Shown: positions 23,301 through 61,900 of the stretch, piece by piece
Position numbering within the stretch: position 1 is the first letter of the stretch
How the letters are laid out: every line of letters begins with the position of its first letter
Assembly: GCA_030390025.1 (NCBI GenBank)
Contig: CM059432.1
Location: 23,376,001 to 23,440,000 of the forward strand
Direction of reading: 5' to 3'
Origin: Squalus acanthias
Lineage: Eukaryota
Length of the DNA: 64,000 bases
Notes under the pieces: model-generated
Seen by the model: only the letters and a program-made list of their open reading frames with translations
Databases searched by the model: none
Told to the model about the DNA's origin: nothing
Made by a program: the position numbers and the translations under genes

Positions 23301-26300
23301 AAGGTGCAGTATAACAGCAGAATAAAATAACTTTAAAGTATTGAAACATGTAAGATTCTGAGGGGGGTTGACAGGGTGAATGCTGAGAGGATGTTTCCCC
23401 TAGTGGGGGTATCTAGAACTAGGGGGCATAGTTTCAGAATAAGGGGTCGCTCATTTAAGACGGAGATGAGGAATTTCTTCTCTCAGAGGGTCATGAATCT
23501 TTGGAATTCTCTGCCCCAGAGAGCTGTGGAGGCAGAGTCATTGAATATATTCTAGGCGGAGATTGACAGACATTTGAACTACAAGGGAGTCAAGGGGTAT
23601 GGGGAGAGAGCGGGAAAGTGGTGATGAGGCCAAGATTGGATCAGCCATGATCTTATTGAATGGTGGAGCAGGCTCGAGGGGCCGATTGGCCTACTCCTGC
23701 TCCTTATGTTCTTATTCTGAACAGGGAACTCCCTCAACAGCTCAGCTGTTAGATGCACTACCCAGTGTCAAACTGAGCCATACAGAGCAGGCACGTTTTA
23801 GACTCAACTCCATTCTGTGGCGAGGTTCCTGATCTCAAATGGTGCAATCATATTGGCACTACAATTTCTTCAGTGTCCCGGGGCTAAAGAAGATCAGAAA
23901 CAGTTGCTGTTTCTGATGGCTATCCAGTAATTTTTCCGTCTCCCTCCCGGCTAAAGTGTGTGTGGATATCAAGTGAGGGCAAAGTCAGAATGTCACCACT
24001 TAAGAACATAAGAACATTAGAAATAGGAGCAGGAGGAGTCCATTCGGCCCCTCGAGCCTGCTCCGCTAACCAATAAGATCATGGCTGATCTGATCTTGGC
24101 CTCAACTGCACTTCCCTGCCCGCTCCCCATAACCCTTGAATCCCCTGTAGCACATGGTTGAATACTTTGCTGACATTCACTATTCAGGCTCAAACAGGAT
24201 GAGTGGCCTCTTGGGTGAGGTGCCAGAGAGTAGTTGTTGCCCATGGACCCATGCTGTAACATCAGTGCCTTCAGGGGAGGGGGGAATAAAAATTAAAGAG
24301 GATTGTCCTGGTGTTTCTGTAAATGTTTTTCATTTCCTAAGATATACAAAACAACAGTGACTGCACTTCAAGAATAATTAATTGGCTGTAAGTCACTCTG
24401 GAAAGTCCTGAGGTCGTGAAAACTGCTAAATAAATTCAAGCTCTTTCTATATATACACAATATGTTACTGCTGTTGCTGTCTCCCTAATTTATATCTGGC
24501 CTTGTATTTGTTTTTCTTCTTTATATGTGATAAAGTCCAAAATAATAAAAATGTATTTAAAAAAATAAGGATGCAGAAGAGACAAAAATATTCTGAGGGG
24601 TACAAAATTATGGAATTGCTAGCAATGATGCATGCCCTCCAGTGGAGGACAGAAGCAATGTCCAATCAGCTGAACAGTCAGTGCCGGAATCATTCACAGG
24701 TATTTAGGGGGCAGTTTCGAATACCCAGAATTTGCTTCAGAAAGTTCAACAGAAGAGCTAAGGAACTGTCATAAATTAGGGGAGACAGGGAGACAGACAT
24801 GGGACAACAGGTAAGAAAGTGCGAGATGCACAGATCAACTTGAATTCCAAAGTCCATTCCCATCCTCATGAACAGGAAAGCATGAATTTTCAAATCCAAA
24901 TTCGGCTGAATTCCTGGGAACAGGAGCTTGGCAAAGCCAAATGACTTGCAGTCTCAGTTAATATTTAATAATACGAAGGGAAAATTTGAATTGAATGCAT
25001 AACTGAAGTTATGAAATAAAAACAATGTATTTTCCTCAGAAGTCCTACACATACACGACTGTAATATTTGGGACTTTATTAAAATCAGTGGTGAGGAGAT
25101 TCCCTAACGGCTCAGTTGATAAGTCCACTTCCCAGTGCGGAACGGATCCGGGTAGATCCCAGCAATGTTCCCTTTAATTTTTCTTGGGTGCACTGCCCCT
25201 TTATCAGGCTGCACAGCTCATTCAAATTTCCGCGCATGCGTGGTTTTTCCCCATTGTAAAGCCAGCAAGCGGCCTACGTGGGACCTCCAGAGCACTGCAC
25301 GGCCATGCAGCTTAACGGGAACATTGGATCCCAGGTTTAATGCCCCAGCCTCTGCTGCGTAGGTTAATCTTTGCCTGGCAGTAGATGAGATAATTGGTCT
25401 CTGTGTGCCTGGGATCATAATAAAGTGGCCAGGTTTCCTGATCCTGACTGGTATTCAATGCCCTCCTGTTGAAAGTGCACAAATGTGGATGTTGGGTGAG
25501 AATAGGGTACCGCTCATGATGCAATAGCTACTCATTATCTAGATTCACACATGAAGAATGCCTGCTTAGGTTGGCTGGTACCCACGGAACAGTCGGTGCC
25601 TTCAGATGCATGGGGAGAAAAAACTAGTGCTTGCCTTACATGCTGACACCGTGGAGGCATTCATGTCTTTGTATTTTCCTTGACAATTTTCTCCCATCCC
25701 CTCCTCTTCCTTTCCTATAGGTCCTTGCTGGGATATAGTTCACAGAGCAGTTATTGAACCAAGAGTTTGCTGGTCTGTATGGCAGTGCACTAATTGGCTG
25801 AGCTACTCGGGAAGCACCAGTCACATCCTTTAGATCCTGTCTCATTGATCATTAGTCTAGCAGAATGGGAAGACAAGTGGAAGATGGAATTTAATACAGA
25901 GAAGTGTGAGGTGATGGATTTTGCCAGAAGGAACAGAGAGAGGCAATATACACTTAATGGCACAGTTATAAAGAATGTGCAGGGACAGAGGGACCTGGGA
26001 GTTAATGTGCATAGGTCCCTGAAGGTGGCAGGACATATTGAGAGAGTGGTTAACAAAGCATATGGGATCTTGGGCTTCATAAATAGAGGTATTGAGTACA
26101 AAAGTAGAGAAGTTATGCTGAACCTTTATAAAGCACTGGTTAGGCCACAACTGGAGTATTGCATCCAGTTCTGGTCACCACACTTTAGGAAGGATGTGAA
26201 GGCCCTTGAGAGGGTGCAGAGGAGATTGACCAGAATGGTTCTGGGGATGGGGGATCTTAGCTACAAGGACAGGTTGGAGAAGCTGGATTTGTTTTCATTA

Positions 26301-29300
26301 GAGCAAAGGAGGTTGAGGGGTGATTTGATAGAGGTGTACAAGATTATGATGGGTTTGGATAGGCTAGATGGGGAAAGGCTGTTCCCACTAGTTGATGGTA
26401 CAAGGACTAGGGGACACAGATTTAAGGTTTTGGGCAAGAGGTACAGGAGGGATGTGAGGAAAAACTTTTTTTACACAGCGAGTGGTGAGGACCTGGAATT
26501 CGCCTTTGACGGAAGTGGTGGAAGTGGACTCAATGTTTTCAAGGGGAGACTGTATAGGTACTTGAGGGAAATAAATTTACAGGGGTACGGGGATAGAGTG
26601 GGGGAATGGGACTGACTGGATCGCACTGCAGAGAGCCGGCACGGACCCGATGGGCCGAATGGCCTCCTTCTGTGCCGTTATGACTCTAGTCACAGAGATG
26701 GCAACTGCAATATACGATCTGAAGGAAGGTACCTCCACCAGTGAAAAAGACCAGCTCATATCTACTGGATTCTTAGTGTGGACTCAATATCCTCACTAAT
26801 AAGTTATAACTTAGTTATGTAGATTTTCCACTGATTTTAAATAACGTGCGCCCAGTAACTACTTTATCCTAGTCGAAAAAATCCTGTCAGAACAACTTAA
26901 TGAACTGAATTATAACAAGAGTCATTATATTAAATCAATCCTACATATTAACGAAAGAGATATTCATATGCAGGCACAAATTAACATAACATATGGCTTA
27001 ACAGACATAGAGAAGAAAAGAAAGAAAGCAAGACTTGCATTTATATAGCGCCTTTCACGACCACCGGACGTCTCAAAGCGCTTTACAGCCAATGAAGTAC
27101 TTTTGAAGTGGAGTCACTGTTGTAATGTGGGAAATGCAGCAGCCAATTTGCGCACAGCAAGGTCCCACAAACAGCAATGTGATAATGACCAGTGAATCTG
27201 TTTATTTGTTATGTTGGTTGAGGGATAAATATTGGCCAGGACACCGGGATAGCTCCCCTACTCTTCTTCGAAATCGTGCCATGGGATCTTTTACGTCCAC
27301 CTGAGAGCAGACGGGACCTCGGTTTAATGTCTCATCCGAAAAAACACACCTCCGACAGTGCAGCACTCCCCTGGAGTGTCAGCCTAGCTTTATGTGTTCA
27401 AGTCCCTGGAGTGGGGCTTGAACCCACAACCTTCTGACTCAGAGGCGAGTGTGCCACCAACTGTGCCACAGCTGACAGCAGAGGTGGAGAGATACAAGTC
27501 TTATTGACACAGATATATTGTAAAGGAGGAAGGTCTTCAAAAATCAAAAGGAAAGTTCAGCCCATTCCGTTTGCTCTTGAAGTGAGGACTCGCAGTAGAT
27601 GACATGGACAGAAACATATGCTGACTTTTACCTCTACTTTGAACATCTAATATAAAATGTATTTTTTCATAAGCTTTCTCCTCTCCTGAAGGTGGTGACT
27701 CATATGGGGCTATGGCTCTCGTAAGTTTTTTTTATTGTAACCATTTTCAGTTACAACACATAGTCATACATTTATATTTTGCTACAGAAAATGTAGTTCA
27801 GTGGATACGATACAGATTGATAGGGAGTAAGCCCTTATAGGTCTATGGCTTGACAGACTACCTCACCCTAGTGATCACTCTTCATGTGGAGCCCAAGGCA
27901 GTGAGTGTTGCCAGGCCATTAAAGGATGTGAGCCATTATATTGAGTCTTAACCAATCCCCACACCTTACAAGAAGGTTTTAATGCCTCTAGTCCATCTGA
28001 AAAAACAACTGAACACAATTTAATAACAGACACTTTTCTATTGACGGAATAAAATTGAAGGGAATGTCATTCTCAGTACCATTCTCCTGCACTTCTCAGC
28101 ATTCAGCTTCAAAGAGGCACTGATGAAGGCCAGGGCCCCAGGAGATGCATGGTCTGAGGAAACCAAGGGTATTGAGAAGAAAGTACAGGGTTTTATAATC
28201 TCACCAAAAAGATTCTAAGTGCCAAATTGCAGACAATTGTGATTCAGAATGACTAGCAACACTAAAATTTCTTGTAATGTTGTGAAAAATGTAAGCTCCA
28301 TCTTGATTTAATCCATTTTATTTTTTTAATTGTGATTCTATAATGTGTTATGTGAATCCCAATCTAATTTAGTAAAACTTCAATCCAGAAATTATATGTG
28401 GTAATAACCTGCCCATATCCAATATATACTAATATAAGAAAGAGGAGGAAGGCAAACTGAGGAGAAAAAAGAAAGGGGCAAACTGAGAAGAAACACACAA
28501 AGAAAGTCAGTCAAAGAGAGGAGACACAAACTGCAGAGAAAGAAAGATAGACATGGCAGGTGGTGGTGGGGGGGCGGGGGGGGGGGTGGTGGGTGGTGCG
28601 GGAGAGAGACCAACAAATTGAGGGGAAAGAGATGCAGAAAGAAAGGAAAGGGACATATGCGTGGAGACAGATGGAACGAAAAAGTCAAACTCAAAGTGAC
28701 AGAAATGAAGGAAGAAAGCCAAAAAGCAGAGTAAGAGATACACACAGAGAGGAGAGAGAAAAACCACAGAGACAATGGGGAGAAGAGGAGAGAGAGAGAG
28801 GAATTGAGAGAGGGAGAGAAAGGACCAGCAGAGACAGACTAATAACTTCACAGAAAAAAGAGACAGACAGAGAGAGATCCAATTTACAGATGGCAACAGG
28901 GGCTGAGCATTTTTTTACCTGTTGTATGGATAACTCAGTGCAGGCCTCACGGTGCGCTCGTTGTGGATCGCAATGAATCAGCATCCACTGCAGCTCAAAC
29001 TAGAAGGAAAAAAGAACTGTTACAAATGAAACAAAAAGGGTAGAGCAGTCCTAATGTCCATTGTGACGTGTAAGATACCACTTTTTTTTTGTTTGTGCAT
29101 TCCCCACACAGTAACTTCCTGATGCGCGTCGTACTGATGGCGATGGGCATTGACCAGGTACCAGGTATTTCCTCAGATAGCAGAAAACACCTGCACTCCC
29201 GTCATCACAGATCACTCTCCCACACACAAACTCATTCCTAACAGTTCAGGAGTATCATTCCTAGAACATATCGCAGGGGCAGGTACGTACTATTTTTTTT

Positions 29301-35300: not shown

Positions 35301-38300
35301 ACTAATGTGTAACCATAAATAGCACATCATATCATCTATACAATAGCAAAATACTGCGGATGCTGGAAAATTGAAACAACAACAGAAAACGCTGGAAAAA
35401 CTCAGCAGGCCAGGCAACATCCGTGGAGAGAGAAACAGAGTTAACGTTTCAGGTTGAAACCCTTCGTCAGAACTGAGAAAAAAGCAGGAAATAAAACAGA
35501 TAAAAAAGCAAGGGGGAGGCTGGGGGGAGGAATAAAAGAACAAAAGGGGTGGTCTATGGTAAGTAGAGACATTAAGAGATGCTCAAGGCAAGACGAGATG
35601 GTAATGGGACAGGTTAAGAAACAAAAGGTGGCTCAGAAGTGTAAAGTGTGAAATGCTGGCAGAATGAGAGACAGCTGCCGTGGGGGGAAGAGAGAGAAAT
35701 TTGCCTGTGTCTCTCATATGCCAGAAATGTACAAGTGCTTAAATTCCCACATATTAATAACAGCCTTTGTACAGTCAAATATTTTTCTGCAATCCTTTGT
35801 ATCTCACACTTAGGACTTAATGCATGTTTACAAAGAATAAGTTACATTCTTGCTGGATTACATCACCAAAGTTGACGTAAACATTTCAGCACATAGATTT
35901 TAGCATTTTTACTGATTTAAAAAAATTCTATAAGCTCTAAGATTTATTAAGTGGCAGCCACAGAATACCAATTATTGGGCCAGAATTTACTGTATAAATA
36001 AAGGTGAAGCTAACAGCGCTCACCGTTATTTATACACAAATCGGACAGAAAATTCAGGCGAGCGCAGATGCACAATTAAATGTGACAAACTGGAAGTTGC
36101 TGTCAGAGATGTGCCGCTCCGCCGCGAACTGCGCAAAGATGAAATCTCGCTGTCTAGCTCTCCATTCAAATATATTGAACGATATGAAGTTCCTGTACTT
36201 AAGTCATAGGTACAGACTAAACTCACCACAGAAAGTTAAGGCTTGTCAATTACAAGTACTCTTTTTAACGGTGTGATAGGTCTTAATTACTGCCAAAAAA
36301 CCTCTCTGCATTGAAAATTTACTTTTACAAGTGTGGAATCTCATTCCTTCAGATGTTAATTGTAATTTATTTAACTATAGTTATTTTATAAATGTGATGG
36401 TTTTTAAAAAAAAATTATTTTAAGTTTAGCTGTTCTTTTGGGGCTGATTTCAATTCACAGATTTGACAGGTCTCCTGTCAAATCTATGAATGAAAGATGG
36501 TCTGCTGCCATTGGCTCTCCATGGCCCACGTGATCCCAGGGGTCGCATCGCACTAACTGCGCCCCTGGAAAACGCAAGCACTGCGCGCCGGCAGTTGGGA
36601 GAGGCCCAGGACCCGAAGTTCCCGTGGGCCCAAAACACAACGGCAGGCGCGGTAGGTAAGAGCACGCGCGATTCTTACCCCCGCGGCAAGCCGGACACGC
36701 GAATTTCTGGGCCATTACCTTCCATTAGAGTAATCTCACTGACCAACATCACACGGTCCATTGTTGTGGGATTGTCATTCGCGGACTAATATTACATGTC
36801 CTGTAATAGTGCGATTGTGACTCATTGACTAATATTACATGTCCTGTAATCATAACTTATATTACACCTCCTGTAATAGTGAGACTGCCACTCACTAACC
36901 AATATTACAGTAGTACTAAAATTAAAAGTGAACGCAAATAGTAATATAGAGGCTAATTTTTGAACTGTTAATTATACAGATGGCCAGCATACTCGGCAGG
37001 TTAATGGCATGAATAAGCTAGCCGTGCTGTGGAGAAGAAATAGATGATGACTGGAATTTCCTCAGAGCTGCTCCCAGTCCACTGCTGTGACTTCACTGAA
37101 AACCCTTGTTTTCATGCATAAACGGCTTTTCCGCCACACTTCCAGCAAAGGAACAGTGGCAAAGAAGGAGCAGCTCCTAGGAAATTCTATAGCCAATGAT
37201 GTGAAGCAATGTTTTGTGTGTGGGGAAGTGGGGTGGAGGAAAATCTGGTTTACCCTCGGTCAGTAATGGCAACAAAACTCACCTTGACAGAGGAAACTAT
37301 TTCCAAATAGCAACGTCTAGCATGGGCTTGCTTGTGAGAAATGGAAAGAAAGATTATTTGTATTAAACACATTGGTGGATATTTTTACCATACCCAGGTT
37401 AAAACAGTGCTGTCCATAATCTTTAATCTTGGTAATTGCTTCCTATTAGTTTCCCTTTAAAATGAATTTGCAGAGACCAGGATTGCTGGTCAGGAGAGCT
37501 ACCTAAATGGGAACAAACCAAAGAAAATTCAACATGTGCGAACTCACACAGATTTTGACTATTCTTTCCTACCTTGTTGGAATTTCAAAGTTTGCCTCTC
37601 TGTCAAGTCTGAAGGCAATCTGAAGTGGTGTCGAACCTTCCACTCTCCTGACACCCCGCAGTGGAATGGTATCCAATTGGAATTGGGTAATGAGATCAAA
37701 TCCTGAGAGTACGGGGAAGCAAAAGAATATCAGATGGGTTTTCAGTCATTAAATGGGGCATCTCTAATGTCACTCTGCCCATTTTACTAAATGGGTTGTA
37801 GAACGTATATAAGGAATGTTTGGCATCACAACCAAGGAGTAACCATTACATTAATAGATGCTATGTATTATAAATGAAAGCCTTGACAACCGCACAATTC
37901 GAGATGATGGTTACAGCGTTGTCAGCAGTCAGCATACACTGCCAAGTCTGACGATTTGCAGCCTTTTTAAAACCTTCTGATTCACACAGGAATACTAAAT
38001 GTAGGTTTATCATGCAGATTAAAAACCTGCAAATTATGAGACTCATAAGCAAGCAACTCTGTGTTTGTAATAATTATTGATTGTTGCTCAAAACAGCACA
38101 GTGGCCAGGATATTCCTCCATGGCAGCCAGGTTCCCGTACTCATTGGCGGCAACACTCATCCCAGGGGACTTCAGGGGTCAGCCCCATTGTGAGATTTGT
38201 GGTAGGATTTCCACCTGCGTTGGAGAGCCCAACTGAGTGGGCGGGGAGGGAGAAAGAAAAATGGCTGCTGCAGGCCCTAGCAACTGCAGCAGCGGAGTGA

Positions 38301-41300
38301 GATTGGCTGCTGTGCAGCAGCTGATGAGGAGTTCACTTTCATATTTTTTTTAAATCAGGATCCCAAAGAGAATTTGAGGCCCTTCAAATTTCTTTTGCTC
38401 TGAATCTGTGCTAGAATCCACAGCCTGGATTGATACAAAGGGAGGGAAATTTGCTACGGCTCTTCGGGGGGGTTTAAACTAATTTGTCAGGGGGATGGGA
38501 AAAAAGGCTGTAGTCCACGAGCCAGTGGTGAGTGTAGGGAGGTACTGAGGAGGGTATCAAGGTCGCAGGAATGTACCGGCAGACAGGAAGATGGCTTGAA
38601 GTGTGTCTACTTCAATGCAAGGAGCATCCGGAATAAGGTAGGAGAACTTGGAGCGTGGATTGGTACTTGGGACTACGATGTGGTGGCCATTACGGAGACA
38701 TGGTTAGAACAGGGACAGGAATGGTTGTTGGAAGTTCCGGGGTATAGATGTTTCAGTAAGAGTAGGGAAGTTGGTAAGAAAGGTGGAGGAGTAGCATTGT
38801 TAATCAAGGATAGTTTAACAGCGGCAGAAAGGCAGTTCGAGGGGGATCTGCCGTCTGAGGTAATATGGGCTGAAGTTAGAAATAGGAAAGGAGCGGTCAC
38901 GTTGTTAGGAGTTTTCTACAGGCCCCCAAATAGTAATAAAGATGTGGAGGAAGAAATTGCAAAGCAGATTATGAATAGGTGTGGAGGTCACAGAGTAGTT
39001 GTCATGGGTGACTTCAACTTTCCAAATATTGATTGGAACCTTTATAGGTCAAACAGTTCGGATGGGATAGTTTTTGCACAGTGTGTGCAGGAGGGTTTCC
39101 TGACACAATATGTGGATAGGCCGACAAGAGGTGGGGCCACGTTGGATTTGGTACTGGGTAATGAACCGGGCCAAGTGTTTGATTTGTATGTGGGAGAGCA
39201 CTTTGGAGATAGTGACCACAATTCGGTAACTTTCACTATTGCAATGGAGAGGGATAGGGCCATACGGCAGGGCAGGGTTTATAATTGGGGGAGGGGTAAT
39301 TATGATGCGATTAGGCAAGAATTAGGGAGTATAAGATGGGAACAGAAACTATCAGGGAAAGGCACAAACGAAAAGTGGAGCTTTTTCATGGAGCAATTAC
39401 TGCGTGTCCTTGATAGGTATGTCCCTGTCAGGCAGGGAGGAAATGGCCGAGTGAGAGAACCATGGTTCACAAAAGAGGTTGAATGTCTAGTCAAGAGGAA
39501 AAAGGAAGCGTATGTAAGGATGAGAAAACAAGGTTCAGTTGGGTCGATTGAGGGGTACAAGGTAGCAAGGAATGAGCTAAAAAAAGAGCTTAGGAGAGCT
39601 AGGAGGGGGCATGAGAAGTCCTTGGCGGGTCGGATCAAGAAAAACCCCAAGGCTTTTTACACTTATGTGAGAAATAAAAGAATGACCAGGGTGAGGGTAG
39701 GGCCGGTCAAGGACAGTAGTGGGAACTTGTGCATGGAGTCAGAAGAGATAGGAGAGGTGATGAATGAATACTTTTCGTCAGTGTTCACCGAGGAGAGGGG
39801 CCATGTTCTTGAGGATGAGAGTGTGATAAAGGTGGATAGGCTGGAGGTGGTAGATGTTCTGAGGGAAGATGTTTTAGCAATTTTGAAGAACCTGAGGGTC
39901 GATAAGTCCCCTGGGCCAGATGGGATATATCCTAGGATTCTTTGGGAGGCAAGGGAGGAGATTGCAGAGCCTCTGGCTTTGATCTTTGGGTCCTCACTGT
40001 CCACGGGGATGGTGCCAGAGGACTGGAGAGTGGCGAATGTTGTTCCTCTCTTCAAGAAAGGAAATAGGAATGACCCTGGTAATTATAGGCCGGTTAGTCT
40101 TACTTCGGTGGTTGGTAAGATAATGGAAAAGGTCCTGAGGGATAGGATTTATGACCATTTGGAAAGGGGCAACTTAATCAGGGATAGTCAACACGGATTC
40201 GTTAAGGGTAAGTCTTGCCTAACAAATTTGATTGAATTCTTTGAGGAGGTAACTAAGTGTGTAGATGAAGGTAGAGCAGTTGATGTCGTATACATGGATT
40301 TTAGTAAGGCGTTTGATAAGGTTCCCCATGGTCGTCTCATGAAGAAAGTAAGGAGTTGTGGGATAGAGGGAAATTTGGCCGATTGGATAAGTAACTGGCT
40401 ATCTCATAGAAGGCAGAGGGTGGTGGTGGATGGAACATTTTCGGACTGGAGACCAGTTACCAGCGGTGTGCCACAGGGGTCGGTGCTGGGTCCTCTGCTG
40501 TTTGTGATTTTTATCAATGACTTGGAGGAGGGGACTGAAGGGTGGATCAGTAAATTTGCTGATGACACCAAGATTGGTGGAGTAGTGGATGAGGTGGAGG
40601 GCAGTTGTAGGCTGCAAAGAGACATTGATAGGATGCAGAGCTGGGCCGAAAAATGGCAGATGGAATTTAACCCTGATAAGTGCGAGGTGATTCATTTTGG
40701 TAGGGCAAATGTGAATAAGGATTACAGGGTCAACGGCAGGGTTCTGAGGAACGTGGAGGAGCAGAGGGATCTGGGGGTTCATATCCACAGATCTCTGAAG
40801 GTTGCCACTCAAGTGGATAGAGCAGTAAAGAAGGCCTATGGTGTGTTGGCGTTTATTAACAGAGGGTTTGAGTTTAAGAACCGTGAGGTTATGCTGCAAC
40901 TGTACAGGACCTTGGTGAGACCACATTTGGAATATTGTGTGCAGTTCTGGTCACCTCACTATAGGAAGGACGTGGAAGCATTGGAAAGAGTGCAAAGGAG
41001 ATTTACCAGGATGCTGCCTGGTTTGGGGGGGAGGTCTTATGAGGAAAGATTGAGGGAGTTGGGGCTTTTCTCTTTAGAGCGGAGGAGGATGAGAGGCGAC
41101 TTAATAGAGGTTTATAAGATGATGAGGGGGATAGATAGAGTGGATGTTCAGAGACTATTTCCTCGGGTAGAGGCAGCTGTTACAAGGGGGCATAACTATA
41201 AGGTGCATGGGGGGAGATATAGAAGGGATGTCCGAGGTAGATTCTTTACTCAGAGAGTGGTTGGGGTGTGGAATGGACTGCCTGCTGTGATAGTGGAGTC

Positions 41301-44300
41301 GGACACTTTAGGAACTTTCAAGCGGTTATTGGATAAGCACATGGAGCACACCAGAGTGATAGGGAGTGTGATAGCTTGATCTTGGTCTCGGACAATGCTC
41401 GGCACAACATCGAGGGCCGAAGGGCCTGTACTGTGCTGTACTGTTCTATGTTCTATGTTCTATGTTAGGTTACAGGGAGCGGGCTGGAAATTGGACAGGA
41501 GTTTGAGTTCGGATCGGTCAAGGTCCTGTGGGTGGCGGAGCGGGCCCAGGGGCCGAGTGGCCTGGTCCTGCTCCCACTTCTTGTGTTCTTTAGAGTTGAG
41601 GTTGGATCAGATCAGCCATGATCTCATTGAATGGCAGAGCAGGCTCGAGGGGCCAAGTGGTCTACTCCTGCTCCTATTTCTTATGTTCTTATACAAAGAT
41701 GGGAGGGAAAGTAGAAAGTGAGGAGGACATAAAAAACCTACAAGGGGATATAGACAGGCTGGGTGAGTGGGCGGAGATTTGGCAGATGCAATACAATATT
41801 GGAAAATGTGAGGTTATGCACTTTGGCAGGAAAAATCAGAGAGCAAGTTATTATCTTAATGGCGAGAAACTGGGAAGTACAGCAGTACAAAGGGATCTGG
41901 GGGTCCTAGTGCAAGAAAATCAAAACGTTAGTATGCAGGTGCAGCAGGTGATCAAGAAGGCCAACGGAATGTTGGCTTTTATTGCTAGGGGGATAGATTA
42001 TAAAAACAGGGAGGTATTGCTGCAGTTATATAAGGTATTGGTGAGACCGCACCTGGAATACTGCATACAGTTTTGGTGTCCATACTTAAGAAAAGACATA
42101 CTTGCTCTCGAGGCAGTACAAAGAAGGTTCACTCGGTTAATCCCGGAGATGAGGGGGTGGACATATGAGGAGAGGTTGAGTAGATTGGGACTCTACTCAT
42201 TGGAGTTCAGAAGAATGAGAGGCGATCTTATTGAAACATATAAGATTGTGAAGGGACTTGATCGGGTGGATGCGGTAAGGATGTTCCCAAGGATGGGTGA
42301 AACTAGAACTAGGGGGCATAATCTTAGAATAAGGGGCTACTCTTTCAAAACTGAGATGAGGAGAAACTTCTTCACTCAGAGGGTAGTAGGTCTGTGGAAT
42401 TTGCTGCCCCAGGAAGCTCTGGAAGCTAAATCATTAAATAAATTTAAAACAGAAATAGACAGTTTCCTAGAAGTAAACGGAATTATGGGTTACGGGGAGC
42501 GGGCAGGAAATTGGACATGAGGCTGAGTTCGGATCGGTCAAGGCCCTGTGGGTGGCGGAGCGGGCCCAGGGGCTGAGTGGCCGAGTCCTGCTCCTACTTC
42601 TTGTGTTCTTTAGATTTGAGGTGAGGATCAGATCAGCCATGATCTTATTGAATGGCGGAGCAGGCTCGAGGGGCCGATTGGCCTACTCCTGCTCCTATTT
42701 CTTATGTTCTTATGTTCTTATAATGAGTTATGTACTCTGCCACAAGAGCTATCAGGTGCATTTCTGGGCAAAGTTCCTTTTAAAGTTTGAGAACTTGCCT
42801 GGTAAGTCATCTTGTCCAATCCTAATATTAGGACACACAGTGCTGTCATCCAGACCATTGAAGTTCAGTCTGTGTTCTACTGCTGGATAAAAAGAAAACA
42901 TAATTAGACCGGTGGCTAGTATATTAAACCTATCAATTAGATACAGATGTATGGTATTCACATTCAGTGTAATTGTAGAGTTAAGAGTCAGAAGGCTTAG
43001 GGTTAGACTTCCACTGAAGGGACTTGATCACCTAATCTCGGCTGACACTTCAGTGCAGTACTGAGGGAGTGCTGCACTGTCAGAGGTGCTGTCTTCAGTA
43101 TGAGACGTTAAACCAGTCTGTCCTCTCAAGTGGATGTTAAAGATCCCACGGCACTATTCGAATAAGAGCAGGGTAGTTCTCCCAGTTGTGAAAAGCACTA
43201 TATAAATGCAAGATCTTTATTTATTTAAATGAAATAGTTTTTAAAAAGAGGCTGGGAGGTTAGGGCAGTGTGTATCTTTTTTTGTAACTATTGGAGAAGA
43301 GAAATGTTTGTTTTGGATACTGGACTATAGATTTAAGTAAAACTAGAGGGAAATCGGATGAAGAATGTAAATGGGATAAAGGCTCACCAGCTGGAATTAT
43401 AAACAAAGTGTTTTTTGTGAATGCACTAATCAGGAAGAACTGGTTAACAGTCCATAGATTGTAAGTGGAAGGGAATTAAGGAGTTCCACAGACTAGATGT
43501 CCTGGGAAAGTAGGAGTAGATGCAATAAGTCTGGACTTATACATGGTACAGATGCGGGTTGGTGCAGGTGGTCCATAAATTAGTCGAGGGTTTGAGGCGA
43601 GAGAAGGACTGCCCAACAGACAACAAGCTTTTCCTTGTATCCTATCCAGGAGTACTATCCATAAACCCATGGCAATAATAACCTCTAAACTGTGAAATTC
43701 TTGGAGACTGGATGGCAGTGAGCACATGCTTATATGGCACTAGAAATACATGTGCAATTACAATTTGGAGCATTGACTGCATCTTTCCATTAATTTCACC
43801 AGAAGGCACAGCCAGATACCACCTGCAAAAACACATGGTTAATTGTGAATTAAAGATTATCTGCTTATACCTGGTAAACACGACCTTTGCCTGAGGGGGT
43901 CGGATAGGAATTTTCCAGATTTTTTTTCCCTTATTGGCCCAGGACATTTTTTCTGTTTTTTACCTTCTCCCAGGAGATGACATGGCTGCTGGGGGGTGTG
44001 GTGGATGGCAGCATGGGGTAGGAAGTGTCCAGTCATGCTGCTCCAGGCATTGCGAGTGTGGGGCAAGCTTTATGGACCAGCTGGTCTTTTCCTGCCCGTC
44101 ATTTTCGTATGTTTGTAATATTTTTTGCAGCATCACAGAAGTCGAATGCATTCTTATTAAACGACATTTTACTTACTACACAATACTGGAGACCAAAATA
44201 CTGTCTGTAAGGTTGCAAAAGTGAAAATACACAGCTTCACCACGAATCCCTCCTGTTTTTTCCTGGTTCAAGGCAAAATTAAAAATTAAACAAATGTCAA

Positions 44301-47300
44301 AAATCATTAAACCAACAATAGCAACGTCATACGTAATCAAATGATAATAGTTATTATCAAAGGGGCTGTCTTCAAGGGAAAGTGTTTCGAAAACAACTCT
44401 TTTTAGGGGGCTGGAAGAAGCGCAATTGGAGCCATTTGTTATTTTCATCATGATGGTATCAGCTACATAACAGTCATTTCAGTCTGATTTATGTCATGCT
44501 TGTAAACAAAAAGAATATAGGTTTGTCAAACACTTTCTCATGAAGATAATGCCCCATTAATGCTATTCATTTTCAAAATAATGTTCATAAATTAAACATA
44601 TATCAAAATGGCAACTAAACGGTGTATGTATCATCTAAAATATAATCTATAATATATAAAGAGACTCCTATCTTTCATATACTGCCACATCCAGTTCGGT
44701 TTTGGAGCAAGAATATGCAGAGCCACAGAATGGCAGAGTATAGGGTTGATTCCTCCTCTCTAAGGTTCTGATGCCAGATGCATTGAGAGAACAAGCACAG
44801 CAGAGGCCAAGTATTTTTTTTTGTGGGGCTGGGGGGTGCTGGATGAGATAGGGATCCTAAGCCTACCATTAGGCAACTATGACGTTGACAATTGGCCAAA
44901 AGCATCATTGGGAGCATCATGGCTGTCTTGCTCTCTCCCAGAGGGTTCCAATGAGGTCAGAATATAGGAAACCTGCCTGTCCCTGTAGGAAGGTTGATAT
45001 TTTAAAAAGCCACAGTTGCCTTAATTAGGTTTTTATACTCCCTGCTGTGTAAGTATGCTCAACATCTGTCCATTGCAATAAAAAGAACAGAAAACAGGGT
45101 TTTATTGAAACTATTAAGTATTGTATACAATGCCAACTAGTGAGTTATTCAATATTGGATTTGCTCTGATATTTTATGAGGTTATCAGACCTCCTCAACT
45201 GAATGACAGTTTTGGAACTCACTGCTGCCATCTGTTGTCCTGTGTGTAACTGACTCCCAGCAATTTATAATTTGTGCAACTTTCTGCCAGCCAGCTATAT
45301 ATGAGGTTTCCAACCTATGGGCCAGAAGTTACATGTGGCCTTCAAGCCCTGGTCCTGAAAGCCCAGGCTGCTCAGTTCTATTTGCATGTATATTACTTAT
45401 TTGCAGTTTTGTCCTGTTTGAGTTTTTGTGGAGGTTTAGAAAAGAGGTTTTTAGTGCTTTTGCCTCATAGGAACATAGAAACAGGAGTAAGCCGTTCAGC
45501 GTTTCAAGCCTGTTCCACCATTCAATTAGATCATGGCTGATCCATACCTCAACTCCATTTACCCAGATTTTCTCCCTTGATTTCCTTAACCTAATAAAAA
45601 TCTATCAATCTCAATCTTAAAAATTTCTATTGACCCAACAACCACAGCCTGTTGGGGGAGAGTGTTCCATATTTCCACTACCCTTTGTGTGAAAAAGTGC
45701 TTCATCATTTCACTCCTAAATGGCCTAGCTCTAATTTTAAGATTATGCCCTCTTGTTCTGGATTCTCCCACCAAAAGAAATAATTTCTCTGTATCTACTC
45801 TATCAAATCTGTTTATCACTTTAAACTCCTGAATTAGGGCACCCCTCAATCTTCCAAACTCAAGGGAATGTAAACCAAGTTTATGCAACCTGTCCTCATA
45901 ATTCAACCCTTTAAGCTCTGGTATCAATCTGGTGAATCTGTGCTGTACCCTCTCCAAGGTCAATAAATCTTTGCTGAGATTTAGTGCCCAAATCTGAATG
46001 CAATACTCCAGATGGAACTTGACCAAGGCTCTGTACAACTGAGGCATCACTTCCTCACTTTTGAATTACAGCCCCCTTGAGATAAAGGCCAACATTCCTT
46101 CACCTTTTTGTACCTGTTAAATACCTTTTAGTGATTTCTGTACATGGACACCAAAGTCCCTTTGCTCCTCCATAGCTCCTGGTCTCTCACTATTAAGAAA
46201 ATGTTCTGGTTTGTCTTTGTCTGATCCAAAGTGGTTGACCTCACACTTCCCCACATTGAACTCCATCTGCCATAGTTTTATCCAGTCACTTAGTCTGTCT
46301 ATGTCCCTTTGTAACTTCCTGCTCCCATCTACATAACGTACTGTGCCTAACTTAGTGTCATCTTCAACTTGGATATACAACTCTCTATTCCTTCATCAAG
46401 TCTTTAATATGTATGCTGTAAAGCTGAGGCCACAGTACTGATCACTGGGGAACACCATTTGTCACATCCCACCAATCCAAGAACATTCCTTTTACCCCTA
46501 TTCTCTATCTCCTACGTCCCAACCAATTACTGACCCATGTCACAAGGTCTCCATTGCTGTGTGTTCTTATTTTTGCCATAATCTCTTGTGCAGAATCTTA
46601 TCAAATGCCTACGGACATCCACATAGACAACATCCATAGACACTCCCCTATACACTATGCTAGAAATCTCCTCAAAAAACTCAACTAGATTAGTGAGACA
46701 TGACCTACCCTTCGCAAATACATGCTGACTCGCTTTTATCAGTTGATACTTGTCCAAATGCTTAGTCACTCTGTCTCTGATAAATCCTAAATCATAATAC
46801 TAAGATCTATTAGTATCAGCAATTTGAGATATATGTAACTTAATAGGAACATGGATTTAATCTTTCTATGTAGCCCCTGAGCCCCCATTGTACACACATA
46901 TTCAACCCATGAAGACAAAAGATTGGATACCCTTGTTCCATTTGAATCACTGCCAGCAATTTAGTATCATGTGTAATTCAATGCACACAATTCATTAACC
47001 TTTATTTAACTCACTACCAACTATCTTCTATTTAATGCATAGAAAAATATGTTTCCCAAAATATGATTATATATTTTGTTCCCTTTCCAAGTCTTCTACC
47101 AGACAAGATGGCCAGATGTGGTCTATGACTAACTTGAAACATGACATGTGCTAAGTGTAGCATGCTTGGGAGGAAAATGGTGACTTTGGACCTATGGTTC
47201 CCACAGCTCTCTACAACTGGGTATTTTTCTCGTGTCATTTCTGGGTCTGTTGTAGACTAATTGACAGAGATTGATTGCTCTGATTAGTCAACAACTCCAT

Positions 47301-56025: not shown

Positions 56026-56975
56026 ATAGAATCATAGAATGGTTACAACATGGAAGAAGGCCATTCGGCCCGTCGAACCCGTGCTAGCTCTCTGCAAGAG
56101 CACTTCAGCTAGTCCAACTTCCCCGCTTTTTCCCCGTAGCCCTGCAAATTTTTTTGTTTCAGATACTTATCCAACTCCTTCTTGAAAGCCGTGATTGAAT
56201 CTGCCTCCACCACCCTTTCACACAGTGCATTCCAGATCCTAACCACTCGCTGTTTAAAAAAGTTTTTTCTTACGTCACCTTTGGTTCTTTTGCCAATCAC
56301 CTTAAATCTGTGTCCTCTAGTTCTGGGAACAGTTTCTCTCTATCTACTCTGTCCAGACCCCTCATGATTTTGAACACCTCTATCAAATCTCGTCTCAATC
56401 TTCTCTGCTCTAAGGAGAGCAACCCTGCTTCTCCAGTCTATCAACGTAACTGAAGTCCCTCATCCCTGGAATCATTCTCGTAAATCTTTTCTGCACCCTC
56501 TCTAAGGCCTTCACATCCTTCCTAAAGTGCGCTGTCCAGAATTGGACACAATATTCCAGTTGAGGCCAAACCAGTGTTTTATACAGGTTCATCATAATTT
56601 CCACACTTTTGTGCTCTACACCTCTATTCATGAAGCCCAGAACTGCTTTCTCAATCTGCCCTGCCACCTTCAACGATTTGTGCATATATATCCCTCGGTC
56701 TCTCTGTTCATGCACCTCCTTTAGGATTGTACCCTTTAGTTTATATTTCCTCTCATTCTTTCTACCAAAATGTATCACTTCGCATTTTTCTGCATTAAAT
56801 TTCATCTGCCACGTGTCTGCCCATTCCACCAGCCTGTCTATGTCTTCCTGAAGTCTATCACTATCCTCCTCACTGTTCACTATACTTCCAAGTTTTGTAT
56901 CATCTGCAAATTTTGAAATTGTGCCCTGTATACCCACATCCAAGTCATTAATATATATCAAGAAAAGCAGTGACC
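56026..56975 (-). mobile_element. CR1 LINE 3' fragment
   Basis: [26 protein letters not shown]...LEYCVQFW in ORF 56410-57135; C-terminus in 56109-56300. Confidence 0.92.
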
Positions 56976-57019
56976 AGTTTGTGTTGAGAGTTTCTGCATC
57001 TAAGTGATTAATGTAGATT

Positions 57020-58985
57020 ACAATCATAGAATTATAGAAATTTATGGCACAGAATGAAGCCATTCTACCCATCGTATCTGTGCCAGCCGAAAAGGATCCA
57101 TTCAGCTTAATCCCACTTTCCAGCTCTTGATCCATAGCCCTGTGGGTTATGGCACTTCCAGTGCATATCCAAGTAAGTTTTAAATGCGATGAGGGTTTCT
57201 GCCTCTAATGCCCTTTCAGGCAGTGAGTTCCAGATCCCCACCACCCTCTGGGTGAAAAATATTCTCCTCAACTCCCCTCTAAACTTTCTACCAATTACTT
57301 TAAATCTATGCCTCCTGGCTATTGACCTCTCTGATAAGGGAAATAGGTCCTTCCTATCCACTCTATCTAGGTCCCTCATAATTTTATACAGCTCAATTAA
57401 GTCTCCCCTCAGCCTCCTCTGTTCCAAAGAAAACTACCCCAACCTATCCAATCTTTCCTCATAGCTAAAATTCTCCAGTCCTGGCAACATCCTCATAAAT
57501 CTCCTCTGTACCCTCTCTAGTGCAATCACATCTTTCCTGTAATGTGGTGATCAGAACTGTATGCAGTACGCTAGCTGTGGTCTAACTAGTGTTTTATACA
57601 GTACAAGCATAACCTCCCTGCTCTTATACTCTATGCCTTGGCTAATAAAGGAAACATACCCCGTTTGCCTTCTACCTGTCCTGCTCCCTTCAGGAATCTG
57701 TGGACATGCACTCAAGGTCCCTCTGTTCCTCTACATTTCTCAGTATCCTACCATTTATTGTGTATTCCCTTGCCTTGTTAGCCCTCCCCAAATGCATTAC
57801 CTCACACTTTTCCGGATTGAATTCCATTTGTCAATGTTCTGCCCACCTGACTAGTCCATTGATATCTTCCTGCAGTCAACAGCTTTCTTCCTCACTATCA
57901 ACCAATTTTTGTATCATCTGCAAACTTCTTAATCATGCCCCCTACAATGAAGTCTAAATCATTGATAGACACCACAAAAAACAAGGGGCCTAGTACTGAG
58001 CCCAGCGGAAACACCTGTCGACCATTACACTTTGTTTCCTGCCACTGAGCCGATTTTGGATCCAACTTGCCACTTTTCCTTGGATCCCATGGGCTTTTAC
58101 TTTTCTGACCAGTCTGCCACGTGGGACCTTGTCAAAAGCCTTGCTAAAATCCATGTAGACTACATGAAACACGCTACCCTCATCGATCCTCCTCAACATT
58201 TTTTATCAAGTTAGTTAGACACGACCTTCTCTTAACAAATCTATGCTGACTGCCCTGGATTAATCTGTGCCTTTCTAAATCACGATTCATACAGTCTCTC
58301 AGAATTTTTTCCAATAATTTTCCCACCACTGTGGTTATGCTGACTGGCCTGTAATTACTCGATCTATCCCTTTCTCCCTTTTTAAACAACGGTACAACAT
58401 TAGCAGTCCTCCAGTCCCCTGGTACCACACCTGTAGCCAGAGAGGATTGGAAAATGATGGTCAGAGCCTCCACTATTTCCTCCCATGCTTCTCTTAACAG
58501 CCTAGGATTTATTTCATCCGGGCCTGGCGATTTATCTACTTTCAAAGATGCTAAACCCCTTGATACTTCCTCTCTCACTATGTTTATCTCACCTAATATT
58601 TCACACTCCTCCTCGTTAACTACAATGTCTGTATCGTCCCTCTCTTTTGTTAAGACAGACGCAAAGTATTCTTTAAGAACCATACCCACGTCTTTTGCCT
58701 CAACACACAGGTTACCTTCTTGGTCTCTAATAGGCCCTACTCTTTCCTTAGTTATCCTCTTGCTCTTTATGCATTTATAAAACATCTTTGGGTTTTCCTT
58801 GATTTTACTTGCCAATATTTTTTCATGCCCTCTCTTTGCTTTCCTAATTTCCTTTTTAATTTCACCCCTGCACTTTCTATACTCCTCTAGGCTTTCTGCA
58901 GTATTGAGCTCTCGGTTTCTGATATAAGCTTTCCTTTTTTGCCTTAACATCCCCTTCTACCCCTTGACATCCAGGGGGCTCTAGA
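57020..58985 (-). mobile_element. CR1 LINE fragment (RT region to 3' tail), frameshifted
   Basis: [32 protein letters not shown] and LRGDLIELYK across ORFs 58180-58950, 57990-58199 and 57107-57427. Confidence 0.92.
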
Positions 58986-58989
58986 TGTG

Positions 58990-61900
58990 GGAGTCCCACC
59001 CTTTTAAGAACAGTAGTGACCACAGCACTAAACCCTGCACACTCTGGCAGCGGACAGCAGGCAAACTTCGCAAATGGAGAAATGGCTACAAGAGGACCAG
59101 AGAAGGCACAGAGTTCTCTGATGCAGCATTGGAGGCCGTACTCTAGGTAGTGAACAGGAGGAGGAAGATCCCGTTCCCTCCAGGAGGCAGGAGGTTCTCT
59201 AGGCAACACCTCCGCCACCAGTGGGAAGGGGTCGCTGAAGAGGTCAATGTCAGGAGCTTAGCTCTCCGGGCACGGCTGTGATGCCGAAAGAAGTACTATC
59301 ACCTCACCGGAGTTGTCAAGGTAAAAATCTTACCTCTCAGCTCAATTATTCATTCCTTACACTTGCAGCACCTGCAGCCTGAATAATCAGAATACGCCCC
59401 TCTCCCGCTTCCTTTCACTCTTATACAATTACTGCACCACACTTCACTCTACCTCCTTCTCCTACTCACATACTCTACACTTCCTACTCTCACCACTATA
59501 GCAGCCCTAACTCCCTCACACCTCACATCTTCCACACAACATATTTGACTATGACAGGCACTTTGTTTAACCTCACCTTACAAAGATGTCACTAACACTT
59601 TCCCTTCTTTCTTGCAGGAGAAGTTTGTGCACAAATTGTGACAGGAGGAGGAAGCTAAGCCCTCTTTCACATGCTCTGACCTGTGGAAGAAAATATGATG
59701 GCCATCACAAGCAGGAGGGGAGTCATGGCAATGCTGGAAGAGATGTCGTTCAGAATTTCTTCCCACCTTATCCTCTTTCTCCTCCTTTCTTACTTCTATC
59801 TCTCCCTACACACTCTGCATGACAAATTGCAGATGCTTTCACCAGCCACTTCTCTTTCTCTGCTCTCTCCCTTCACATTAAAAGCTAAACCTTGTCCCCC
59901 TCTTTCATTTCAATTGCTGAAAATGTGGACGCCCAGGATGAATGAATCATGACTGTTGCCAGAAAACCAGGAACAGCCCTGCATGATGCTTTGCTTGTGG
60001 TCACAGAACAGCTGAACATTGAGGGAGTGGAATCCCTATCTATTCAGAAAGGTACCAGCCTGGTGATGGAGAGCACACAAGGCAATATGGGTGTAGTCTA
60101 TGACATCTTGCACCCTGGGGAAGCCTGCAATGCAGGCAAAGGCTCTTTCTCCTGCTTTGCTCTATCCATTGGGAAAGAGATGTAACTGTTCCTCCTGAGT
60201 TAGAGAGCCTGGGTGACCTTCCTGATACAGCGGCGAACAGCAAACTGTCACTGATGTCACCTGCTGCAGCCTAGAAGGAGCCTGTTGCATAAAAGTTAAA
60301 GGCCACAGGCAGTGCTGTCAATGCCCTGGTGTGAAGCTCGAGTTGTGGTTGCAGCAGGTGACATAGCTCGTCATAGCCTCCTTGGTGAAGCGAAGACTCC
60401 TTGCTGTAGGGGGTGGTGGTTTGTGTCAGCTTCACCTCTGACTTCTGAGCGGTTCGAATCGCTCCCACTCCCTTGGTTCTAGACCTTGGACTTATTTGGG
60501 GGTTGTGATAAAAGGTGCAGCAGACAACTGAGTTTGATGAAAAGAACTTCAATCTTTATTAAGAGGTAGTACACAAATAATAACACTCAACACTCTAAAG
60601 GTGGGGAACACTTCGGTACAAGCGAGGGAAATGACAGTAGAACAATACTTCACCCCTCCCAACCCCACTTTACTAGCTAAGTTAGGCTTTGAAGGACCAG
60701 GGATAATGCTCACCAATCCTTTTACAGTTGGGCTAAATCGCGGTTTTGGGGTTCGTTGTTTATGGCGGTTAGTGTCTGCCGTACCCCGTACGCAGTAGAG
60801 GACTTCACCTGGGTCTCTGGTCAGTCTTCGCGAGTCCGCTGATGCGGTAGGATGTCGGTTTGGATTTATCTGGTGAGTACCCAATTTCTTTCGGTTAGCA
60901 ATAGGGTTTAGAGTCTTTGGGAAAATCTTACCCAGGGGTAAGTCAGGAGTAGATTGTAGAGTGGAAACTTGGCGGTTTTTCAGGTTTTCTTCCCTTGAGT
61001 TGGTCTTTGTTGGTCGTGGTGGCCTGCTATTACCCGCTCAGTTGGGGGTAATATGCGGTTGTTGGTTTCTTGAGGCCTTTGGTTTCCGCGACGGTTTTAG
61101 GCCTTGTCTAGTGTGTCGGTCGACCTCGTGGAGCCGTTGGTGACTTGTTGCTGCTTGTTGCTCCGGGTGACTGTGTTGGGACCGTTGTTGGAGGTCCGTC
61201 GAGGTGGTATCTTCACGAGCTGGACTCAGGTGTGTCTGAGTGGTGAGCGATGCCGACTCGCTTCCAGCTCGACTTGGGTCTGTGATGTTGCCCCTTGTCT
61301 CCACACTCGACTGTGTGTGTGTGATGCTGATGACCCGCTTGACTCGACTGTCGAACCGCTTAACAGGCCTTCAATTATATTAAATTGAAGTGGCCTTATC
61401 TGCCCGCCAAATCTGCTCAGTCCATTGTCTGGTTTTGGTGGGCTCGTTAACGGTAACGACTTTACTAGCGTGTTAACTGGTTTTTAACAGGCCTTCAATC
61501 TCACCCATTGAACATGGCCTTATCTACCCGCCAAATCTGCTTGGTTCTTTGTCTGATTTTGGCGGGCTAATTACCAGTAACTGTTCTGTAAGTGTCAAAT
61601 GGCTTTTGGGATGGCTTGCATCCTGTCGATCTCCTCAGTTGATCACTGGTGATTGATTTTGTGTTTGGTTTTCTAGGCTGGACTCGGTCTTTCTATAGAA
61701 TGGGTCTGAGTGGGTTTTATTATGCATGTTTCTGATGGGCCCTGTAATCGGTTTTGATGGGGCCTGTATTTTGGGTGGGACTGTCTTCTCCCAGGGTCTA
61801 TTGTTCAAATGTTAATGTCTGCTGGGGCTTGAGTGAGGTCATCCCGGTTCCCCAGACAGTGTAATTAACTGCAATAGCCAAACTGCTTTTACAGAGGTCT

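Follow-up and report, generated by a model that had tools for sequence, protein, structure and literature searches.

A candidate -1 programmed frameshift site at the ORF1/ORF2 junction of CR1 LINEs, considered from a copy in Squalus acanthias

In the -1 programmed ribosomal frameshifting (-1 PRF) of coronaviruses and arteriviruses, and at retroviral gag-pol junctions, a heptamer of the form X_XXY_YYZ lies at the end of the upstream ORF and an enzyme ORF follows in the -1 frame, the same arrangement as is described below. U_UUA_AAC is the coronavirus slip site. The definition of X_XXY_YYZ is set out in PMC3542737, where a stem-loop or pseudoknot 5-9 nt downstream is the canonical second element, and U_UUA_AAC has been used as a reporter slip site (PMC3919603).

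Amongst LINEs, L1 and SART1 resemble CR1 in having a dicistronic RNA in which ORF2, following ORF1, is expressed at a low level (PMC1965478, PMC10275272). Canonical vertebrate CR1 LINEs share an esterase ORF1, an ORF2 with apurinic endonuclease-type (APE) and reverse transcriptase (RT) domains and the lack of a poly(A) tail, according to a survey (PMC13343379) whose main text mentions neither frameshift, slippery site, overlap, start codon nor translation and leaves the production of ORF2 unaddressed. In the portion of PMC11835228 drawn on here, CR1 accounts for 11.8% of the chicken genome and is given two ORFs, frameshifting being mentioned for ALV only. The first 300,000 characters of PMC5009743 do not mention CR1, and the non-LTR frameshift case given there is HeT-A.

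The junction in the window and the family of the element

The window, the whole 64,000-nt stretch of S. acanthias DNA analysed, holds a LINE copy whose features are all on the + strand. At 38465-38482 its letters read CGG GGG GGT TTA AAC TAA. The putative slippery heptamer T_TTA_AAC (38473-38479) is in the X_XXY_YYZ register of ORF1 and adjoins the ORF1 stop TAA (38480-38482), the TA of which is part of a CTA Leu codon in the -1 frame. An earlier note had pointed out this heptamer and its register before the stop, and both were found again when the window was re-read. Its description of the site as an ORF1/ORF2 junction holds for the stop and the heptamer, but ORF1 is cut here to its last 14 codons including the stop. 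This 3' remnant (13 sense codons plus stop, 38441-38482) lies at the 5'-truncation point and matches 29 other copies, comparison with which places the truncation at about 38440/38441, with unrelated sequence upstream. The window copy is a 5'-truncated passenger without promoter or ORF1 start; the mechanism proposed below concerns the source elements of the family, not this copy. TTTAAAC occurs 19 times on the two strands of the 64-kb window and is followed by TAA or TAG in one case only. The word is common, so that its place and conservation matter and not the word alone.

The ORF2 frame extends from stop to stop over 38434-41379 and is -1 relative to that of ORF1. Read as an open frame from the slip site, ORF2 is intact over 968 codons (38473-41379). 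It starts with a linker of 45 codons (38473-38607) that has no ATG, while the other two frames contain two and three stops there, and continues into an APE-type endonuclease domain (38608-39219, codons 46-249; PF03372, E 6.4e-22) and an RT domain (40060-40779, codons 530-769; PF00078, E 6e-37). The first in-frame ATG (38971-38973) is inside the endonuclease domain, 166 codons past the slip site, and an ORF2 started at this AUG would miss the first 120 endonuclease residues. The claim that the -1 frame is open into the endonuclease, with no ATG until 38971, was thereby borne out. A short 3' UTR (41380-41466) ends in a (TTCTATG)-type microsatellite tail (41440-41466) and has no poly(A).

A DNA search of the 3.7-Gb genome to which the window belongs gave 981 first-look candidates. 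The 40 that were scored were all about 100% identical, which suggests that the family is very young, and a difference of one base in 260 separates the window from the 29 other copies retrieved. Full-length ORF1 of this family (L007:616-1542) encodes 308 aa with an SGNH esterase domain (PF13472, E 3.7e-13). Named ORF1 homologues are present in sharks, rays, chimaera, frogs, bichir, eel and birds, the closest being that of a houndshark; P0017 and P0089, used as search queries, returned only the window's own family. The element therefore has the esterase ORF1, the ORF2 with APE and RT domains and the microsatellite tail without poly(A) of canonical vertebrate CR1 elements. By this architecture, and by ORF1 homologues from sharks to birds, it fits the description of a canonical vertebrate CR1 LINE.

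Conservation of the junction between lineages

Since copies of one young family say little, other lineages were sought with divergent ORF1 proteins, with the Pfam esterase model and in metagenome contigs. Eight lineages from the same genome (A, the window family, and B, C, C2, D, E, E2 and F) were compared with seven metagenome contigs, called bird-like because they resemble penguin and goose proteins, and one real copy was used per lineage. The junction alignment comprises 14 lineages, seven from the own genome and seven bird-like; L111 and L112 were omitted and F was found later. The seven bases of the heptamer and the TA of the stop are invariant in all 14, although the lineages are related and the counts are not independent. 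In every lineage the ORF1 stop after the heptamer is TAA or TAG, never TGA. Lineage F (L231-L242) has TTTAAAC and the stop in 12/12 copies, and TTTAAAC followed by TAA or TAG is present in 170 of the 177 own-genome loci with a readable junction. Amongst the copies picked by the Pfam esterase model, which does not cover the junction, 24/30 have an intact heptamer and six have one or two changes in it, three of these at the same position. The six look like decayed copies, and may alternatively be a small non-slippery subfamily.

The ORF1 C-termini themselves are 25-35% identical between shark-type and bird-like elements and 48-95% identical within the own genome. The terminal Leu is encoded by TTA only and the Asn by AAC only (13/13), against four and five codons in two other invariant Leu columns and against a single codon kept at just one of 13 invariant endonuclease residues. 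The T before TTA never changes, while serving as the third codon position of Gly, Thr/Ala, Asp, Ser, Cys and His. By these comparisons, the conservation of heptamer, stop and -1 register goes far past what the protein would need. A lack of conservation of heptamer or register across copies had been named beforehand, in the earlier note, as one of the things that would refute a frameshift, and both proved to be conserved.

The heptamer is present in 10 of 35 metagenome loci, including the variant of L111, a mutated stop in L134 and an upstream indel in L116. Another 16 end ahead of the ORF1 stop. The nine loci without the heptamer are L127, which belongs to another clade, L130 and L144, which match only the middle of the profile, and six weak esterase matches with no ORF2 behind them. 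Two viral-contig loci have neither an ORF2 match nor the heptamer, and scans of bacterial genomes returned nothing. L111, a distant element with 41% ORF2 identity, has G_TTA_AAC, and its ORF2 stays open from there for 973 codons. GUU is tolerated as XXX in equine arteritis virus (PMC3542737), and the L111 variant would remain slippery. L127, the one control, lacks the heptamer; it has an esterase-like ORF1, a spacer of ~145 nt and an ATG of its own ahead of the endonuclease, and its ORF2 is, on our reading of the sequence, L1/Tx1-like (24% identity). This single case suggests that the esterase does not need a Leu-Asn (LN) end.

At the protein level, LN is the final dipeptide in 62 of the 66 ORF1 homologues that extend to the C-terminus (sharks, rays, frogs, eel and penguin). 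A wider search, of 50%-identity representatives with a profile built from 50 end-reaching proteins, includes the terminal LN and is biased to it; this gave 150 cluster representatives, of which 117 reach the end, with 60 LN, nine GN, two KN, one KK, one GL and 44 other dipeptides. LN is still terminal where the C-terminal tail is 6-13 residues longer (9/60 LN ends). The 44 are distant ORF1-like representatives whose final dipeptides fit no heptamer and whose element type is not established. U_UUA_AAC needs a T before TTA, so Glu, Gln, Lys, Met and Trp are barred before LN, and these five residues precede LN in 1/36 de-duplicated ends, whereas the two positions before that have them in 24/72 (Fisher P 0.0002). 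The residue before GN is Gln in 7/8 ends and Ser in 1/8, both codable with a final G, and the Gln-Gly-Asn group would require G_GGA_AAC, as deduced from protein only. The GN proteins are related to one another and may be one clade. Two stingray gene models, P0039 and one longer ORF1 relative, pass from ORF1 into Phe-Lys-Leu (FKL) and the endonuclease; these may be single copies changed by one base, or annotation joins, and were not counted as support.

In the 12 lineages with a readable linker (E, m113 and m122 were excluded, the chosen copy being broken or ending before the motif), heptamer and endonuclease motif are separated by 37, 45, 48, 50, 51, 66, 67 or 88 codons. Whatever its length, the linker leads into the endonuclease in frame -1: over 642 codons this frame has no stop, while the other two together have 104. 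The residues FKL at its start do not vary in 15 lineages, and the linker is unalignable past about nine codons. Upstream of the heptamer, in most lineages, a stop shuts the -1 frame within 13-22 nt. The register is thus kept despite a variable linker, which implies that translation of ORF2 must start at or near the ORF1 stop.

A proposed frameshift and its alternatives

These results suggest that the junction is probably a site of programmed -1 frameshifting that gives an ORF1-ORF2 fusion. The X_XXY_YYZ word is in zero-frame register, the -1 ORF is open from the heptamer and the conservation of the heptamer exceeds what the protein needs; direct support in the sequences comes from this register and open frame, from the window family that has no ATG and from the heptamer, stop and G run kept across lineages. 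Most ribosomes would read Leu-Asn and the stop, giving the 308-aa esterase ORF1 protein. A ribosome is envisaged as pausing while UUA occupies the P site and AAC the A site, with the stop as the next codon in frame. The G run that begins 10 nt further on would then be near the mRNA entry channel and may add to the pause. A minority would slip by one base on U_UUA_AAC to UUU/AAA and read on through linker, endonuclease and RT, with a predicted fusion of ~1274 aa. In contigs from eight sequencing runs, taken by guess for RNA, the junction of this family is crossed without indel or joint, but these contigs may be DNA and lose rare forms, and they do not count as evidence here. The gag-pol-style -1 fusion proposed in the earlier note therefore gains comparative support from heptamer, stop and register, but the pseudoknot that went with it does not.

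The elements of that pseudoknot (38506-38528; GGCU/AGCC with CCAC/GUGG) are present, but they form 4-bp stems 26 nt from the heptamer, do not recur in the other lineages and have CCAG for CCAC in copies of the same family, for example L032, L036 and L047. The region that the note would have folded, 38480-38570, folds no better than shuffled sequence (z +0.52, 132/200 shuffles as good). Conserved folding downstream was likewise not found in 60-nt windows of 15 lineages (z -0.98 to +1.39); with 100-nt windows, two of 14 lineages reach z -3.3 and -2.4, the window family having +0.49. No stem-loop or pseudoknot was found 5-9 nt downstream, the place of the canonical second element, and Rfam gave no match at the junction.

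What is kept downstream is a run of five G (38490-38494 in the window), a candidate stimulator. It starts exactly 10 nt after the heptamer, the first four G being present in 14/14 and the fifth in 13/14 aligned lineages. It begins 7 nt after the heptamer in L111, and in lineage F it is a single tract with nothing else kept downstream. In the -1 frame the run reads NNG GGG GNN, encoding Gln, Lys, Gly or Arg, then Gly, then various residues; synonymous positions of this frame are thus fixed, which suggests a signal at the RNA or DNA level. G-quadruplexes are able to stimulate -1 shifts after UUUAAAC (PMC3919603). A conserved stimulator of this kind, for which four G-tracts would be expected 5-8 nt downstream, was rejected, as no three-tier motif was found in 16 lineages and a two-tier motif from the G run occurs in 3/16, with one tract in F. 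A long-range partner for the G run was also rejected: in several lineages the best duplexes cluster at about -630 to -680, where ORF1 encodes its LxNR(Y/F) motif, and against synonymous randomization their mean z of -0.80 (n=11) is about that of a CLPGA site (-0.77), another ORF1 window giving -1.12. On this analysis the G run possibly acts as a protein-binding site, without a conserved local fold.

Termination-reinitiation, in which the ribosome stops at TAA or TAG and restarts close by, on an AUG or a non-AUG codon of the -1 frame, to make a separate ORF2 protein, is unlikely, though it has precedents: SART1 uses UAAUG coupling (PMC10275272) and L1 ORF2 accepts any sense codon for its AUG (PMC1965478). 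The heptamer and G run would then be a reinitiation signal, and a restart close to the stop would likewise fix the register. The earlier note had expected no ATG ahead of the endonuclease; there is none in the window family, but one is in frame in six of the eight own-genome lineages. Lineage C has a TAATG stop-start overlap, the fourth linker codon is ATG in four of the bird-like lineages, and in lineages with such an early AUG reinitiation could operate alongside frameshifting. Outside A and F, however, linker Met codons are scattered: they lie at codons 3-58, at unrelated positions, and make up 2.8% of codons, that of lineage E being two codons before the domain. Lineages A and F have none at all, B, C2, D, E and E2 have no AUG overlapping or next to the stop, and m113, m120, m122 and m111 have none near it. 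Around the stop, only TTT AAA CTA are invariant as codons of the -1 frame, and these are not usual non-AUG starts. UGGGA, a motif of the TURBS type, occurs within 90 nt upstream in 4/16 lineages, at unrelated positions. Moreover, reinitiation predicts neither the exact X_XXY_YYZ word nor its exchange for G_TTA_AAC or, as suggested by the proteins, G_GGA_AAC, both of which would suit a frameshift.

The junction might instead serve RNA processing or transcription, whose signals TTTAAA ahead of G-rich sequence resembles. It could be a 3' splice site, with a branch like CTAA and an AG ahead of the G run; a weak poly(A) signal whose downstream element is G-rich; an internal promoter of the TATA-like kind; or a place where the polymerase slips and adds one base. 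AG does precede the G run in 12/14 lineages, but it is missing in lineage B and m114, and the branch would lie only ~10 nt from the AG. In A and F an ORF2 RNA made by splicing or from an internal promoter would still be AUG-less, the T and A runs are only three long, and neither the codon phase of the heptamer nor G_TTA_AAC is accounted for; such a signal seems very improbable. Least probable by a little is that there is no nucleotide signal, and that constraints on Leu-Asn at the end of ORF1 and on Phe-Lys-Leu at the start of ORF2 overlap and so fix the bases. Overlapping frames do fix third positions, and FKL is indeed invariant, but ORF2 would then have to begin before FKL, in a stretch of the -1 frame that has no start and is soon closed in most lineages. 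Nor would it be expected that LN stays terminal after longer tails, that GN replaces it together with a matching preceding residue, or that the linker is otherwise unalignable. Programmed -1 frameshifting remains the reading adopted here.

Significance and comparison with known systems

CR1 is dominant in birds and abundant in this genome, and the translation of an ORF2 without an AUG is unaddressed in the papers searched. A full-text literature search, the coverage of which stops short of supplements and of the 1990s chicken and turtle CR1 papers, found no account of frameshifting or of a slippery heptamer at this junction. Those papers may have noted the ORF overlap. What is apparently new here is the application of -1 frameshifting to CR1 LINEs, without the usual RNA structure.

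If the frameshift is true, the RT would be fused to an esterase/coiled-coil ORF1 protein, and the ratio of ORF1 to ORF2 would be set as in retroviruses. An 'intact' CR1 would need to be redefined, with no ATG required for ORF2 and with one-base changes in the G run mattering, and CR1 retrotransposition assays would be built differently. The junction would also represent a deeply conserved -1 frameshift signal of cellular genomes, apparently without the usual RNA structure. A far wider statement can be offered as speculation, and is rather doubtful: that all esterase-type vertebrate CR1 elements, together with the G_GGA_AAC group, make RT only as a fusion, through a structure-free cassette of heptamer, stop and five G at 10 nt, on which ORF1p itself or some protein that binds G tracts acts as the stimulator, and that this cassette, present in very many genomic copies, has been unchanged since the ancestor of sharks and birds.

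Compared with viral -1 PRF, the CR1 junction has no conserved fold 5-9 nt downstream and has instead five G at 10 nt, and the element encodes no protease that would cleave the fusion. In the cited parts of PMC1965478 and PMC10275272, the ORFs of L1 are non-overlapping and those of SART1 meet at UAAUG, and a conserved slippery heptamer is described for neither. Amongst APE-type non-LTR elements, TRE5-A and TRE3-A of Dictyostelium likewise have the second ORF at -1, so that a frameshift is required (PMC5911963). They differ from CR1 in clade and host and in having a non-esterase ORF1 without assigned function.

In the -2/-1 frameshifting of PRRSV nsp2, the spacer from slip site to motif is ~10 nt. 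The slip site there is followed by a short, single-stranded, homopolymer-rich CCCANCUCC, which is bound by protein and involves no RNA fold (PMC7618843). The PRRSV motif is C-rich and is used with nsp1beta/PCBP, whereas CR1 has a run of five G, for which a protein binder is hypothetical. The likeness is by analogy only, and lies in a slip site that is followed at about the same distance by a short homopolymeric motif instead of a fold.

The window copy and neighbouring repeats

The lineage A CR1 copy in the window (38440-41466) is truncated at its 5' end exactly 32-33 nt before the slip site, the TTTAAAC heptamer at 38473-38479. Despite this cut its ORF2 frame is intact, with 968 codons. No clear target-site duplication was seen around 38440-41466, and at 41467 the tail passes directly into sequence resembling the 3' end of another CR1. 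The window contains at least 10 further CR1-like reverse transcriptase fragments, older, 5'-truncated and lying on both strands, with 30-64% identity to ORF2; these include 18978-19508, 25857-26471, 41693-42490, 45595-46781 and 56139-59004. Upstream of the CR1 copy, a short imperfect repeat at 36800-36915 contains self-complementary words (cctgtaatag...taatattaca).

Junction variants and the ORF1 motif

In lineage C (locus L087 and related copies), the heptamer is followed directly by a TAATG stop-start overlap, which is absent from its sister lineage C2 (ORF1 identity 95%). These two lineages form a natural pair with which to tell reinitiation from frameshifting. In lineage E, three of 30 copies (L171, L176 and L187) have a common A>G change at base six of the heptamer, reflecting either chance decay or a small subfamily.

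Within ORF1, an LxNR(Y/F) motif lies about 640 nt upstream of the stop (901-925 in L007, a full-length family A copy), and this distance is nearly constant (636-648 nt) in shark-type and bird-like lineages. The motif site was tested as a pairing partner of the G5 run located 10 nt after the heptamer, and was rejected.

Recent activity and the distribution of ORF1

Several deeply diverged CR1 lineages were recently active in the S. acanthias genome, since at least three (A, B and F; L061-L085, L231-L242) have intact ORF1 in many near-identical copies. In two copies of lineage B, L217 and L218, the frame read from the slip site stays open over 999 codons.

In protein databases, two stingray gene models (P0039 and P0109) show ORF1 and the -1 frame fused across the junction, and one of these models is named as an unrelated host enzyme. 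CR1 ORF1 is also filed under names of bacterial or host genes (P0006 and P0034), which is contamination or mis-annotation. The metagenome contig L127 (273-4048) carries an esterase-like ORF1 ahead of an ORF2 that is L1/Tx1-like and has an ATG of its own; by sequence likeness this is a putative case of an esterase ORF1 outside CR1/L2.
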